From an uncultured archaeon (GTDB lineage Archaea; Asgardarchaeota; Lokiarchaeia; Sigyniarchaeales; SOKP01), in assembly GCA_964632315.1 (NCBI GenBank), contig CAZWEM010000045.1, forward strand, positions 4,893 through 40,453: a stretch of 35,561 nucleotides of DNA, read 5' to 3'. Under the pieces are notes generated by a model. The model saw only the letters and a program-made list of their open reading frames with translations. It made no database searches and was not told the DNA's origin. Shown here piece by piece: positions 4,118-9,475 of the stretch. A program made the translations under genes and the position numbers. The stretch's first letter is position 1. Each line of letters opens with the position of its first letter.

Positions 4118-5974
4118 TTAAGGCTCTTTCAAACTATGCAAGATATATCGTTGAGCGATTAGATCCACACTGACCTTTCCTAAAACTTTTCCATTTTCTA
4201 CAACTGGCATGGCAGAAATTCTAAATTGCTCAAAATCGCGAACAATATCAATTATTGTATAATTTGGGTCAGCAACAATCACGCTTTGAGTCATAGCCGC
4301 ATCAAGGTTGACATCACATGCATTATCAGCCATCGCTTTCGTAATATCCCAATCTGTAACAACTCCAATCAATATACCTTCCTTTAACACAGCAGCGATA
4401 TCACTATTATCTTTAATTAGTAAAGCTGCAGCATCTTGTGCTGTGCTATTAACATCAATCGTCGGAATTGATTCCATTATGTCTTTAGCAGTTAATTCTT
4501 TTTCTTTTCCAATTAAACGTTGTAAACTAATTTTTTCAGCAGCGTTAGAAGGAAGCATATCTGGATTGGAAGTTAACAGATCTACTAATTCAATCATGTT
4601 ATTATGAATTACATTCTTTCTATATTCTTCTCCAGCAATTAACCTTTTCTTCGACAATGCAGTAAAATCTTCTTTGTGTTGATTTAACCAAGCCATTACT
4701 TCACTTTTTTTCCCAAGGAGTTTTGGAGGTATTTGTAAATTATCAGGAGTTTTAACGATATGTTCTTGGGCAGCAAATATGACTCCTCCTGAGTTAACGA
4801 GGTAGTCATTTGCAATCATTATCCCTTTTTCTTTATAAACTATTTGCTCCATGCGTATTCTCGCGGCTTTCCTGTTAGGATCTGGAGAATAAGTGTTAGC
4901 TCCCTCAATTATTACACTCCATCTTCCCATTCTATCAACTGTCATGGAAGGAGCTTCATTTTCCCATACACCTAAATAATTAAAAATGGGAGCTGCGGGT
5001 ATAAAACAAAAAGCATCCTCAAGCAATAGATTATTGGGGTTTGTAGAAAAGTAAATTGAAGACTTAGTATTTTTATCTTGGATGTTATCAATATAGTAGT
5101 TTTTTGTTACAATTCCTTTCTCCTTCCAATAGTTGAAAAGATCCTCAGTAGGTAATCCCTGTTCATCATATAAGTATCCCTCGAGATCACTTATTCCTGT
5201 AATCTTTACCCAATGAATCCTCTCTTTAAAAATTCGAGCAGCATGAGCCCCTACCGCTCCAAAACCTTGTATTAATATTGTCAAATCTTCCATTTTAGGA
5301 ATATCTAATTGTGCAAATTGGGGTAAAACTCGTAACCTAGGCATAATTTCAATTAAAGTTTGAAATGCTGTTACTACTCCTCCTGCAGCCCCTCCTAACT
5401 CATCAATTCTATTTCCTCCCATCAATAAAGGTTTGGAGACTGCGCTATCTATCCCGTTTTCAATGGCAATAGTTAACATATCATTGTCATTAGTTCCGAC
5501 ATCGGGTCCAGGAACATATATATCCTTATAACGCCCTATGAGTTTTGCAAATCCTTTCACAATTTCATCATGCTCCTCTTGAGGTAATCCTCTTTTAGCG
5601 ATGATACCAGCTTTACCTCCTCCATATGGTAAATTAGCTGCTGCGTTTTTTAAAGTCATCCCACGAGCTAAATTTTGAATAATGGGAGGAGTCACGTCAG
5701 GGAGCATTCGAATTCCTCCCATTGAAGGTTTCCCCATCGACAGATTATCAATAATTAAATATCCTCCAATTTCTTTTGGAGAATCATCATCCCACATGCA
5801 AATTACTAAATGAGGTCCTACTTTATCACTGACTATGCCTAATTGTGAAAGTAAGAGTTCATCAGCATTTCCAAATTCTAAATAACACCGTCCCTCTTCT
5901 TTGATCAATCGATTTTTTCGGGTTATTTCTGGAAGTCTTTCTTTAAGATAAGAATCCATAAACTTTGGAATCAT
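4118..5974 (-). CDS. Glu/Leu/Phe/Val dehydrogenase fused to a C-terminal CBS-domain pair
   Basis: GGIRM, GMTLKNA..NLPYGGGKAGI, PGPDVGT, QGFGAVG (nucleotide binding), IEGAN, NSGGV; C-terminal TAKDIM...GVVTDWDI...MPVVENGKVLGKVS CBS repeats. Confidence 0.9.
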   Translation of the reverse strand: MIPKFMDSYLKERLPEITRKNRLIKEEGRCYLEFGNADELLLSQLGIVSDKVGPHLVICMWDDDSPKEIGGYLIIDNLSMGKPSMGGIRMLPDVTPPIIQNLARGMTLKNAAANLPYGGGKAGIIAKRGLPQEEHDEIVKGFAKLIGRYKDIYVPGPDVGTNDNDMLTIAIENGIDSAVSKPLLMGGNRIDELGGAAGGVVTAFQTLIEIMPRLRVLPQFAQLDIPKMEDLTILIQGFGAVGAHAARIFKERIHWVKITGISDLEGYLYDEQGLPTEDLFNYWKEKGIVTKNYYIDNIQDKNTKSSIYFSTNPNNLLLEDAFCFIPAAPIFNYLGVWENEAPSMTVDRMGRWSVIIEGANTYSPDPNRKAARIRMEQIVYKEKGIMIANDYLVNSGGVIFAAQEHIVKTPDNLQIPPKLLGKKSEVMAWLNQHKEDFTALSKKRLIAGEEYRKNVIHNNMIELVDLLTSNPDMLPSNAAEKISLQRLIGKEKELTAKDIMESIPTIDVNSTAQDAAALLIKDNSDIAAVLKEGILIGVVTDWDITKAMADNACDVNLDAAMTQSVIVADPNYTIIDIVRDFEQFRISAMPVVENGKVLGKVSVDLIAQRYILHSLKEP

Positions 5975-6103: not shown

Positions 6104-7150
6104 CTAAATAGACATAAATATTTGATTCACACGAAATGTACCAATAAAAGATATAACAAAACCAATCAAAATTGAAATAGCAAATAAGTAGCAAGCTACC
6201 TTAGAAACTTTTTGGTGCCATTCCTTAGCTTTAGTCTTCTTTAGGAATCCTAATGAAGCAGCAGTTATAAGTAAAATAATTGTGATTAAGCCTAATATCC
6301 CATGGATTGAATAAAATAAGGCTCCTCGAGTTAAGATTGTGAGATAGCTCCAATAAATAAAAGATGCAAAGGCAGAAATTATGAAAAATAATGATGAAAC
6401 TAAATGAAAACGCTTCTTCATGAAGGTTGGCAGTTTAGGATATCTTTTAGTATTAGGGATAGATTTATTTCCAGATATAAAAGCTAATCCACCAAAAATA
6501 AATGCTATAGAAAATAAATAAGCATGTGTTATCCATGAGGTAAAGTTTGTTCTCATAGCATTATCACTCCATCCTCGAGATTCCCAGAATCCTATGTAGT
6601 CATAGTCTACTACTTCAATACTGACAATCCATTTTACCCACTTATACCCATAGTGATCAGGACATACTAAGCGTAGTGGAAATCCTTGTGCTAGTGGTAA
6701 ATCTACACCATTCATTTTGAATGCTAAGAGTATATTTGTTGCGTATGCCTCTTTTAAATTTAAAGAATCAGAGTAGTTATCAGCGGCATAAAATATAAGA
6801 TCTTTAGCAGATGTAAGCACTCCTGCTAATTCTAATATTCGAAAAAGAGGTACCCCCTCCCATCTTGCAGTACCAAAAGGACCATCGACGCATTCTAATG
6901 TTGCAATTTCGGTTACAGAATCCATTTGAGTGAGATTTTCATAATCAAATACAAGTTCATTCTCGATAGCTCCAGTTATTGCTAGGGACCAATTCTCTTT
7001 TTCGATATTAGGTACGTTTCCTATTTGTAATTCAAAGAATAGATTATTGGGAGTGATAATAGTGCGTAATAAGTGATTAAATCCTACTAATACTAATGGA
7101 ATTGAGAGTGCTAGGATTAAACCGAGAAAATATAAAGTTGATTTCTTCAT
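6104..7150 (-). CDS. Sulfite-oxidase-family molybdopterin oxidoreductase with N-terminal membrane anchor and a C-terminal four-helix, four-His membrane domain
   Basis: Mo-ligand Cys in TLECVDG, WEGVPL, GFPLRLVCP..YGYKWVKW, GFWESRGW. Start moved from TTG 7174 to ATG 7150 (MKKSTLYF). Four C-terminal hydrophobic helices each begin with a His. Confidence 0.85.
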   Translation of the reverse strand: MKKSTLYFLGLILALSIPLVLVGFNHLLRTIITPNNLFFELQIGNVPNIEKENWSLAITGAIENELVFDYENLTQMDSVTEIATLECVDGPFGTARWEGVPLFRILELAGVLTSAKDLIFYAADNYSDSLNLKEAYATNILLAFKMNGVDLPLAQGFPLRLVCPDHYGYKWVKWIVSIEVVDYDYIGFWESRGWSDNAMRTNFTSWITHAYLFSIAFIFGGLAFISGNKSIPNTKRYPKLPTFMKKRFHLVSSLFFIISAFASFIYWSYLTILTRGALFYSIHGILGLITIILLITAASLGFLKKTKAKEWHQKVSKVACYLFAISILIGFVISFIGTFRVNQIFMSI

Positions 7151-7226
7151 TTTAAGATAAAGCAAAAAAATCAATATTATAATATAAATCTCTTTGTTAT
7201 CGAAGTAAGGAAATCGGTATTTTAAT

Positions 7227-9038
7227 TCAAGAAAAATCAGATAATTCTAATTCCTCTATCTTTTCTTTAGTAGGAATCCCATCCAAATTCCATCCCATAA
7301 TATTATAGTAGTCATCTAAAAGTGAATTCAAATCAACCGTATGTCCCCTACTCTCACCAACGGAAAGGGGAATTTTTAGAAATCTTTTAGGAATTGTATC
7401 ATCTTTTCGATTAAATCCAATTTTGATATTATATAACCGTTCCAGATTGATAATTCGTTCTGCAGCTTTGAGCATTTTTTCAGGATTCATTTTCATCCCT
7501 GTTATTGCATTGTAAGCTTTAATCTGATCATTTAGAGGAATTCCAGCTCGCATTGTTGAACACATGGCAATTGAATCAACGATACACATGCTAAATTGCT
7601 GATCTCTTTCTAATAATGCTTTCCCCTCAACCTCAAATCGATTTCCTAAGGATAATTCTACCCCAAAAGTAGTTGCGTACATGTGATGGGCTCCTTTTGG
7701 AGAGGTTGCATATGTCAGAGCCATTGCTTTTGCTCCACGTGGATCGTATACTGGGAATGATTGTCCTTTGGAATGAATAGCGTAACTTTCACTTCCTAAC
7801 TTTTTACTCGCAAAACCAATTCCTTCAGCAAGAAGATCTCCAATTCCATTACGTTCCCCAATCTTCTTTAACAAAATTAATAACGCTTCTTTATTCCCAA
7901 AATTAGCTTCAATCCCATCAATATTATCATTATTAAGTCTGTTTGATTCAAAAGCTTCCATTAACATTGAAATGCATGCACCAGCATTTATTGTATCAAA
8001 ACCATAATTATCACAAATCTTCGATGCTTTCACTATCGTTTCCCAATCACTTATACCACAATTCGGACCAAGCATACCTACTGTCTCAAATTCAGGACCT
8101 TCTAATACTATCAAGCGTCCATCTCGAGAAGATATATTAACTCTCTTTCCACAAGCAATTGGACATGAAAAGCAAGAACTATCTCCAAAAACAATTCTCT
8201 CTCTCATTCTGGAACCCTCAAGCTTATTACCTTCTGCAAAATATCCTTCAGTAAAATTACGATTCACCCAAAATCCTGCATTATTTATTCTTTCGACTAA
8301 TTCCATTGTTCCGTATTGTCTTCTTTTTCTTCCTCCTCGCGATTCTCGAAGATTTTTTATTAACTCTTTACTTAGTGATATAATCGTTTTTGGATTAGGT
8401 ATTTTTAGATCAGAACTTCCTTGCAATGCTATTCCTTTTAGGTTCTTTGAACCCATAACGGCTCCAGAACCTCCACGACCAAAATCTCTATAAAAAGCGT
8501 GTGAAATCGTAGCATATCGAACAAGTTTTTCCCCAGCGGGACCTATCACTACAATTTGAGCTGGTTTATCTAAATTCACGTCTTTTTGGATTAAATTCTC
8601 GCTCTCTGGAATATGCTTTCCCCATAACTTATCAGCTGATTTAAATTCAACCTTTTCATTAATTATAGATAAAAAAATAGGTTTTTTAGACTTCCCTTCG
8701 ATAATCAATCCATCAAATCCTGCATACTTTAGTTCTGGGCCCCAATGGCCCCCACAAAGTGAATATGAATAGCTTTGAGTAAGAGGGGATTTAAAAGTAA
8801 CACATATCTTGTTATTTCCTGGTATTAAGCTTCCCGCGAGTGGACCATTCATGAATATTAATTTATTTTTAGCAGAGAGTGGATCTATATCTGGAGGAAC
8901 TTCTTTCATTAAATAAAATGCTCCTAATCCTCGACCACCAATATATTTTTCTAACAACTCACTCTGGAGAGTTTCTACGTTAGAATCTTCACGAGACAAA
9001 TCAACTCTCAGAATTTTTCTAATCGAACTTTCATCCAA
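7227..9038 (-). CDS. aor: Aldehyde:ferredoxin oxidoreductase family protein (tungstopterin)
   Basis: ILRVDLS, YIGGRGLG, KSPLT, GRGGSGAVMGSKNLK, Fe-S ligands CFSCPIAC, GPEFET, YDPRG, YY..MGW..DG.P; TTG start. Confidence 0.93.
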   Translation of the reverse strand: MDESSIRKILRVDLSREDSNVETLQSELLEKYIGGRGLGAFYLMKEVPPDIDPLSAKNKLIFMNGPLAGSLIPGNNKICVTFKSPLTQSYSYSLCGGHWGPELKYAGFDGLIIEGKSKKPIFLSIINEKVEFKSADKLWGKHIPESENLIQKDVNLDKPAQIVVIGPAGEKLVRYATISHAFYRDFGRGGSGAVMGSKNLKGIALQGSSDLKIPNPKTIISLSKELIKNLRESRGGRKRRQYGTMELVERINNAGFWVNRNFTEGYFAEGNKLEGSRMRERIVFGDSSCFSCPIACGKRVNISSRDGRLIVLEGPEFETVGMLGPNCGISDWETIVKASKICDNYGFDTINAGACISMLMEAFESNRLNNDNIDGIEANFGNKEALLILLKKIGERNGIGDLLAEGIGFASKKLGSESYAIHSKGQSFPVYDPRGAKAMALTYATSPKGAHHMYATTFGVELSLGNRFEVEGKALLERDQQFSMCIVDSIAMCSTMRAGIPLNDQIKAYNAITGMKMNPEKMLKAAERIINLERLYNIKIGFNRKDDTIPKRFLKIPLSVGESRGHTVDLNSLLDDYYNIMGWNLDGIPTKEKIEELELSDFS

Positions 9039-9040
9039 CT

Positions 9041-9475
9041 TTAATTTTCACCAGAATTACTCTTATTTTCTAAGTATTGAATAGCGTGTTCTGGACAAAT
9101 TGCCACGCATGCGGGCTCACCACCACATAAATCACAGAAAACAATATGTTCATTAGAAAGATTCAATTTTGGAGTAGAATACGGGCACGCATAATAGCAA
9201 TCCATGCAAGCAATGCAATTTTTTTCATCAACTATTATTGCATTCGTCTCTAATTCTCTCGATAATGCCTCATATTCACATGATTCAATGCAAGGGGCAT
9301 CTATACATTGGTGGCAGTAGATCGCGTTGTCTATTTGTTTTACATGATCTCTCCTTATCCTAATAAGGGCCATTTCAGGATTGATCACTTGATAATGGCT
9401 CAAACTGCATATAATTTCACATAAGCGACAACCAATACATTTGCTAGATTCAAAGTGTAAGCTTTTATGACTCAT
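9041..9475 (-). CDS. 4Fe-4S dicluster electron-transfer protein (AOR-associated, DmsB/HydN-like)
   Basis: CIGCRLCEIIC, CHQC..APC..SC, CIACMDCYYACP, CDLCGGEPACVAICP; ends 2 nt before the aor start. Confidence 0.92.
   Translation of the reverse strand: MSHKSLHFESSKCIGCRLCEIICSLSHYQVINPEMALIRIRRDHVKQIDNAIYCHQCIDAPCIESCEYEALSRELETNAIIVDEKNCIACMDCYYACPYSTPKLNLSNEHIVFCDLCGGEPACVAICPEHAIQYLENKSNSGEN

Follow-up and report, generated by a model that had tools for sequence, protein, structure and literature searches.

What does a gene encode that joins, in a single chain, a molybdenum (Mo) domain of the sulfite oxidase (SUOX) family to a membrane bundle with four histidines, and how would such a protein obtain its cofactors in an archaeon in which the expected synthesis and export genes are not found? 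The question is raised by a stretch of 35,561 nucleotides, here called the window, from contig CAZWEM010000045.1 (positions 4,893 to 40,453, forward strand; assembly GCA_964632315.1) of an uncultured Asgard archaeon of the Sigyniarchaeales. The gene occupies 6104..7150 on the minus strand, an intact open reading frame from ATG that encodes 348 amino acids plus a stop. A first-pass annotation of the window had read it as a one-gene transmembrane redox module, in which an outward-facing Mo domain is wired to the cytoplasm through two haems, and as a whole this interpretation is partly supported. What makes the gene of interest is not so much the fusion as a conflict: a Mo domain that keeps its cysteine ligand is predicted to face outward where no twin-arginine (Tat) export system and no haem synthesis are found, and often no synthesis of the molybdenum cofactor (Moco) either.

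A predicted outward molybdenum domain and a four-histidine bundle

The protein begins with an N-terminal signal-anchor helix, TM1 (residues 3-28; 7067..7144, on the minus strand like all features of the gene given below). Two lysines precede this helix, its Pro-Leu kink and IGxLxLLxxPL consensus are conserved, and AlphaFold2 models it as helices 3-15 and 17-28 at pLDDT 89-97. A minimal SUOX-fold domain for a molybdenum or tungsten (Mo/W) pterin follows (residues 31-199; 6554..7060); recognised by Pfam and Foldseek, it lacks a dimerisation domain and is predicted, from loop charges and sequons, to be extracytoplasmic. The chain ends in a four-helix bundle resembling DUF4079 and cytochrome b561 (residues 206-336; 6143..6535), recognised through Pfam matches in the family, fold matches and profile links. 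Pfam Oxidored_molyb (PF00174) is found at residues 44-189 (E 5e-39), its 134 bits exceeding the cut-off of 24, and it also matches every one of the 47 homologues in our conservation alignment, which lie at 35-83% identity. The AlphaFold2 model built from these 47 sequences (mean pLDDT 91, pTM 0.83) consists of the kinked helix 3-28, a beta-rich domain at about 55-181 and helices at 206-229, 246-274, 282-302 and 306-336.

Five predicted ligand residues are invariant across the 47 homologues. Cys87 (codon 6890..6892), the predicted Mo/W ligand, aligns without gaps to the cysteine of the YedY RCVEAW loop. The four histidines fall one to each bundle helix: His209 in helix 1 (6524..6526) and His283 in helix 3, within an FYSIHG motif (6302..6304), are on the outer side, and His249 in helix 2 (6404..6406) and His312 in helix 4 (6215..6217), each after a K/R-rich loop, are on the cytoplasmic side. 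The SUOX motifs TPNxxFF, GFPxRxV and GYKWVKW are invariant or nearly so. Since invariance of the cysteine and of the four histidines is far above what chance would give, the observation of a Mo-Cys domain followed by a four-His bundle is confirmed. The first-pass annotation had described this layout of anchor helix, SUOX domain with Mo-Cys and four-His membrane bundle and had proposed histidine conservation as a check on it; Pfam, the model and the 47 of 47 histidine columns all agree with its description.

The family is largely an Asgard one, conserved in Loki-type archaea and their Asgard relatives. A search of 5.8 billion proteins returned 165 relatives, approximately 100 of them full length (about 340-355 amino acids) and nearly all from Asgard metagenome-assembled genomes, with source names of Lokiarchaeota, Hodarchaeota, Thorarchaeota and Promethearchaeota; one comes from Methanomassiliicoccales. 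Their database names are generic ("molybdopterin-dependent oxidoreductase" or "DUF4079 family protein"), and literature searches found no paper on the fusion of a Mo domain to a four-His bundle or on DUF4079 function. When 121 genomes of the phylum were sampled, 15 carried the full-length fusion, two of these 15 genomes being closed. A divergent paralogous clade is also present, with second copies in genomes G099 and G077 (L017 6147-7187; L018) that keep the cysteine and all four histidines. Both paralogues adjoin a gene for an alkyl-sulfatase-like metallo-beta-lactamase, Pfam having been run on the L017 copy only.

The Mo domain is predicted to lie outside the cell from the positive-inside rule applied across the family, from an enrichment of N-glycosylation sequons and from the position of immunoglobulin-like (Ig-like) domains in one relative. 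Averaged over the 47 homologues, the segments assigned to the cytoplasmic side carry 2.2 (N-terminal tail), 5.1 (loop after bundle helix 1) and 5.6 (loop after bundle helix 3) lysines plus arginines, against 1.0 after TM1, 1.0 between bundle helices 2 and 3 and 0.8 in the C-terminal tail; the net charge of the Mo domain itself comes to about -11. The K/R-rich loops after helices 1 and 3, noted in the first-pass annotation, thus recur across the family, and the outward Mo domain predicted from them is supported. Sequons in the Mo domain average 2.26 against a shuffled expectation of 1.11, a twofold excess that is supporting only, as relatedness of the sequences inflates the count; the sequon at N72 is kept in 31 of the 47. 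In the 798-residue protein P0159, five Ig-like domains, a type of domain that is usually extracellular, stand ahead of the same bundle in the position of the Mo domain. With the Mo domain outside, the pair H209 and H283 would come to lie close to the outer face of the membrane and the pair H249 and H312 close to its inner face, just as in cytochrome b561. The N-terminus of the window protein, MKKS, shows no twin-arginine consensus, and any RR within the first 20 residues occurs in only 6 of the 47 homologues; the absence of a Tat signal, with KK in place of RR, had been noted from the window protein and extends to most of its family.

The bundle, the predicted molybdenum site and their known relatives

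By its sequence matches, the bundle appears to belong to the DUF4079/cytochrome b561 group. In the window protein, residues 209-333 score just below the Pfam cut-offs for both DUF4079 (PF13301; 26.2 bits against 31.4) and Cytochrom_B561 (PF03188; 21.5 against 23). At E <= 0.001, DUF4079 matches 39 of the 47 family members (best 8.9e-12) and Cytochrom_B561 matches 12 (best 2.2e-6). A profile made from the bundle only (alignment A2) and run against 1.84 billion representatives matched only 49 clusters, comprising the fusion family, its fragments, a few stand-alone proteins of 135-190 residues and the Ig-domain protein P0159. The latter and the stand-alone proteins P0162-P0165 exceed the DUF4079 cut-off at 35-55 bits (P0152 is marginal at 31.5), and P0164 and P0165 also exceed that of Cytochrom_B561, at 31 bits. 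When the fusions were aligned jointly with stand-alone DUF4079/b561 proteins, only the four histidines and two glycines were invariant. In another relative, P0132, the Mo domain is lacking and the N-terminal helix and all four bundle helices are present, a pattern consistent with a five-helix DUF4079 protein having acquired a Mo domain in its first outer loop.

Fold comparison points the same way. Since the Mo domain dominated the Foldseek search with the whole model (led by SorA 2blf, E 6e-16, and YedY 1xdq, with b561 first appearing at rank 50), the bundle was modelled separately, at pLDDT 84.6. Its best natural Foldseek match is the Arabidopsis cytochrome b561 (4o7g/4o6y; TMq 0.69, 23% identity, E 0.02). 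VIA-align paired it with 4o6y over 138 residues (Z 12.3, 20% identity) and with human Dcytb, 5zlg, over 143 residues (Z 11.9, 19-20% identity). The top three VIA-align rows are designed helical bundles (Z 13-15, 4-8% identity), which we treated as generic four-helix geometry; the identity to b561 and Dcytb, about 20%, is well above the 2-14% of the unrelated rows. The match spans b561 residues 43-194, which we take to be the haem-binding core helices 2-5, the first of them starting on the non-cytoplasmic side. A sequence search of solved structures with the C-terminal domain, as a single sequence or as a 15-sequence profile, gave no match at E <= 10, so that the link to b561 rests on Pfam, the transitive profile matches and the fold comparison. 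ESM Atlas returned b561/DUF4079 clusters for the C-terminal part at just 0.77-0.79, a lead and not evidence. The ferric-reductase domain (PF01794) has no match in the window protein or its genome, and the histidines are one per helix. The b561-type reading of the four-His layout proposed at first pass is therefore supported by the alternating single histidines and by Pfam, profile and fold matches, the suggested structural comparison of the C-terminal part having returned b561 and Dcytb as the best natural folds. The Asgard bundle shares with cytochrome b561, Dcytb and DUF4079 a four-helix core with one histidine per helix on alternating membrane faces; it differs from b561, a six-helix protein that uses ascorbate, in having one plus four helices with an enzyme domain of 170 residues in the first outer loop.

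The Mo domain is, as far as its sequence can tell, a minimal YedY/MsrP-like core. Its overall sequence and fold similarity is highest to SorA and SoxC, yet the residues that bind sulfite in SorA, R55 and H57 (identified from deposited mutant chains), are absent, the SorA motif FFVRYH aligning to FFELQ. A stretch of about 17 residues bearing an arginine, which follows the SorA cysteine, is also missing from the alignment of the window protein, and Pfam finds no Mo-co_dimer domain (PF03404) in it. The cysteine loop, IATLECVDGPF, aligns without gaps to IYRMRCVEAWS of YedY/MsrP. It is this combination of a missing sulfite-binding Arg/His pair, a YedY-like loop and no dimerisation domain that points to the minimal core and makes sulfite oxidation by the domain appear unlikely. 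None of the NCBIfam models reaches its cut-off (SorA 108 against 600, SoxC 87 against 420, MsrP NF003767 67.5 against 207). Structures of PruR are also significant fold matches to the whole model (Foldseek E 3e-7), and the sulfite oxidase structures 1sox and 2bih are among its matches as well.

Other SUOX proteins bear on how such domains reach the outside. More distant SUOX relatives in other phyla carry clear Tat signals of the SRRxFL type. The nearest non-fused relatives, like other Asgard SUOX proteins, carry a Sec-type signal, a lipobox or an anchor and mostly retain the cysteine, so that outward SUOX domains without Tat appear to extend beyond this family. Those nearest relatives, the bacterial metagenome proteins P0098, P0103 and P0105, are exported and have two tandem SUOX domains behind Sec-type signals; P0098 has a lipobox, and P0103 and P0105 have Thr in place of the Mo-ligand Cys. 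Four Asgard SUOX proteins (L020 in G102, L021 in G025, L024 in G109 and L025 in G087) combine an N-terminal Sec-type anchor with a C-terminal membrane anchor or an Ig-like domain of Mo-co_dimer type, and appear to be extracytoplasmic, mostly without a Tat consensus. The source genome itself has a second SUOX gene (contig C8 15500-16094; L002 1414-2007) encoding 197 residues with an IHCVTTWS cysteine loop and neither a signal nor a membrane helix, probably a cytoplasmic YuiH-like enzyme.

Among the closest characterised systems is MsrP/MsrQ (YedY/YedZ) of E. coli, where an outward SUOX-fold Moco domain with a cysteine ligand receives electrons through the membrane from a di-haem b protein. MsrP resembles the Asgard domain in its gapless cysteine loop and in lacking a dimerisation domain. 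However, MsrP/MsrQ are two polypeptides, MsrP being exported by Tat, whereas the Asgard protein is one chain without RR, from a genome where neither Tat nor a Ferric_reduct gene was found. MsrQ is a six-helix ferric-reductase-domain protein with pairs of histidines on two helices, in contrast to the b561/DUF4079 type of the Asgard bundle with its single histidines. Animal sulfite oxidase and plant nitrate reductase also combine a SUOX-fold Moco domain with a haem b (cytochrome b5) in one chain; unlike the Asgard protein they are soluble single-haem b5 proteins with a dimerisation domain and Arg-rich anion sites. The description of the gene as a one-gene analogue of MsrP/MsrQ is thus reasonable, although the kind is not new, for single-chain haem-Moco proteins are already known. 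The Sco3746 family, present in bacteria and euryarchaea, has a predicted di-haem b membrane domain and an extracytoplasmic Moco domain in a single chain (PMC5449189). In Sco3746 five helices come first, the Moco domain is C-terminal, a conserved twin-arginine precedes helix 5, and both Sec and Tat are needed (Tooke et al. 2017, PMC5449189). What is new in the Asgard arrangement is the domain order, with the Mo domain placed after helix 1 and ahead of the bundle, the different haem-domain family, and the lack of RR in genomes where Tat was not found.

The only relevant precedent for Sec export of a SUOX fold with ligand uptake outside would be PruR. It is a Sec-exported SUOX-fold protein that binds excreted pterins in the periplasm, in which Trp replaces the Mo-ligand Cys, the hairpin is truncated and the role is in signalling (PMC11194511). 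Like the Asgard domain as proposed here, it is a minimal SUOX fold outside the cytoplasm, exported without Tat, with its pterin taken up after export; unlike it, PruR has no cysteine and no redox partner, whereas the Asgard protein keeps an invariant cysteine and a loop of full YedY length.

A proposed reductase, its cofactors and the competing readings

We favor, at about even confidence, a single-chain transmembrane reductase of MsrPQ-like function, with five helices, a Mo- or W-pterin on Cys87, two haems b and scavenged cofactors. In this reading a minimal YedY/MsrP-like SUOX domain would sit in the first outward loop of a DUF4079/b561-type bundle, and the bundle would most likely hold two haems b, one near the outer face between H209 and H283 and one near the cytoplasmic face between H249 and H312. 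A cytoplasmic donor may dock at the K/R-rich inner loops, with electrons passing from it through the two haems to the outer metal-pterin center, where an oxo-compound (a sulfoxide or N-oxide, for instance) would be reduced; methionine sulfoxide in proteins of the cell surface is one possible substrate. As no Tat system and no haem or Moco synthesis are found in the source genome, insertion would be by Sec/YidC, and the cofactors would be scavenged, possibly after export. The identity of the cofactors, the direction of the electrons, the donor, the substrate and the loading route are in each case what we infer.

Several observations weigh against this reading, most of them concerning cofactor supply. 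The source genome (4.45 Mb in 119 contigs, 99.5% complete by marker genes, 8.6% contaminated) yielded neither TatC nor TatA, and searches for hemB, hemC, HemW, Ni_hydr_CYTB, Ferric_reduct, a second DUF4079 or multihaem c-type motifs in it found none of these. The fusion protein would thus be its sole candidate haem protein among the families tested. The phylum survey agrees: TatC is found in 0 of the 15 fusion-bearing genomes, two of them closed, against 11 of all 121 sampled, and hemB in 0 of the 15 against 6 of the 121. With hemB not found in the 15, nor the other tested haem families in this genome, haem would have to be scavenged. The Moco pathway is in a similar state. Pfam searches of the source genome found no MoaC, MoeA or MoaA C-terminal domain; tblastn with the proteins of G049, a genome of the same family, found no MoaC, MoaD, MoaE, MoeA or MoaB, and just generic radical-SAM matches for MoaA. 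MoaC was not found in 9 of the 14 other fusion-bearing genomes; it is present in 5 of the 15, against 66 of the 121, and in just 2 of the 9 genomes of the genus. The source genome nonetheless has about 15 genes of the AOR (tungstopterin) family, for example at window 7227-9038 and on contigs C50, C9, C37, C27, C47, C71, C21, C2, C5, C46 and C58, a combination suggestive of auxotrophy for the pterin cofactor in a lineage with many pterin enzymes. The first-pass annotation had proposed a search for tatAC and haem-synthesis genes and had wondered how a protein with KK would be loaded. The lack of RR stands, and the puzzle proves wider than noted, with no Tat, haem or Moco synthesis genes found among those tested. 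All extracytoplasmic Moco enzymes studied so far, to our knowledge, receive their cofactor in the cytoplasm and cross the membrane in folded form through Tat, and we know of none that matures without it. The fold scores of the bundle are also modest, with a Foldseek E of 0.02 and a Z of 12.3 that lies in the range of chance helical-bundle matches, and the literature searches found no report of haem binding by DUF4079, a family mentioned in just one unrelated paper.

Gene context adds little. Across 16 related loci the fusion gene alone is common to all, and no donor or substrate can be read from its surroundings. The sole informative context, which speaks for the Mo-domain assignment, is that of G049 (L003, contig C50 3132-13517), one of the five MoaC-positive fusion-bearing genomes, where the gene lies inside a Mo/W island. 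The order there is a binding protein, a permease and a TOBE ATPase (a Mo/W-type ABC transporter), then the fusion, moaC-moaA-moaD-moaE-moeA-moaB-moeA and an FTR1 iron permease.

These observations can be arranged in other ways. The same architecture and topology might serve cofactor acquisition, the outward SUOX domain having no catalytic Moco center but binding an external or scavenged pterin as PruR does and acting as a receptor, carrier or reductase in cells that depend on pterins yet are auxotrophic for Moco, with the bundle as electron source or mere anchor. A genome with about 15 AOR genes and none of the tested Moco synthesis genes needs some uptake route, the gene sits in G049 between Mo/W uptake and Moco biosynthesis genes, no Tat system was found, and PruR offers both a significant fold match (E 3e-7) and the example of a Sec-exported SUOX fold that binds excreted pterins (PMC11194511). 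We consider this unlikely, however: PruR-type proteins have no cysteine and a shortened hairpin, whereas the Asgard cysteine is invariant in a loop of full YedY length; five fusion-bearing genomes make Moco; and a redox bundle on a pure carrier would have no obvious purpose. The failure to find tetrapyrrole synthesis in any of the 15 fusion-bearing genomes, or any haem chaperone or other tested haem protein family in the source genome, together with the uncharacterised state of DUF4079, could instead mean that the bundle is free of haem, holding other metal centers or serving just as a membrane anchor or dimerisation module while the Mo domain draws electrons from elsewhere. This also seems improbable to us. 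Apart from two glycines, the four histidines are the only residues shared without exception by the Asgard fusions and by relatives above the Pfam b561 cut-off, one per helix and on alternating faces as in b561. A b561 fold without haem is not known, and bacterial haem auxotrophs that retain haem proteins are well known.

The difficulty over loading would largely vanish if the topology were reversed, with the Mo domain in the cytoplasm, where it could receive its cofactor in the ordinary way, needing neither Tat nor loading outside, and the bundle passing electrons to or from the outside; a cytoplasmic SUOX paralogue does occur in the same genome. This would place about 11 lysines and arginines outside in two short loops, against a bias that holds over 47 sequences, and would run counter to the sequon enrichment, to the like orientation of the Ig-domain fusion P0159 and to the match with b561 residues 43-194, taken to be core helices 2-5, the first of which starts on the non-cytoplasmic side. 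It would also still demand a Moco that the source genome apparently cannot make, and we regard it as very unlikely. An outward sulfite dehydrogenase, oxidising exported or environmental sulfite and sending electrons inward through the haems, is suggested by SorA and SoxC being the best overall sequence and fold matches, and appears to us extremely unlikely: FFELQ stands where SorA has its R55/H57 motif, neither the Arg-bearing insertion behind the cysteine nor the dimerisation domain is present, the NCBIfam SorA score of 108 is far from the cut-off of 600, and the families searched yielded no respiratory acceptor.

Gene surroundings and significance

The fusion gene probably has its own promoter, as suggested by a TATA-like element, TTTATATTATAA, read from the sequence about 35 nucleotides upstream of the ATG in the intergenic region between the stop of the AOR gene and the start codon (7151..7226, minus strand). 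Since the homologues also start at the MKKS-type position, the ATG at 7150 is kept, the protein beginning MKKSTLYF. An alternative TTG at 7174, 24 nucleotides upstream and adding eight residues, was judged unlikely on the same two grounds. Beyond the AOR gene, and two nucleotides upstream of it, lies a gene for a two-cluster ferredoxin of 144 residues (9041-9475, minus strand). The AOR enzyme or its ferredoxin was considered as a dedicated partner of the fusion protein; as these ferredoxin-AOR neighbours are not conserved across the related loci, the idea was rejected. On the other side, the window encodes a Glu/Leu/Phe/Val-type dehydrogenase with a C-terminal pair of CBS domains (4118-5974, minus strand).

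The transmembrane reductase that we prefer touches on a rule of molybdoenzyme maturation. A conserved Mo-Cys domain that faces outward where no Tat system is found would represent an exception to the loading rule, a novel export route or a role other than Moco catalysis. In the most far-reaching form of the proposal, Sec/YidC passes the SUOX domain through the membrane in an unfolded state, the Mo/W-pterin is loaded outside and the bundle likewise takes up external haem, all in archaea that make neither cofactor and lack Tat. We consider this somewhat unlikely; if true, molybdenum-cofactor insertion after export would be seen here for the first time, and the scavenging of cofactors from syntrophic partners would be indicated as a basis of Asgard physiology. 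The bundle, for its part, would give the cytochrome b561 core, known chiefly from eukaryotes, a relative in the archaea. Finally, the dependence of Asgard archaea on their partners for cofactors becomes directly testable through this protein, and this dependence bears on syntrophy models of the origins of eukaryotes.

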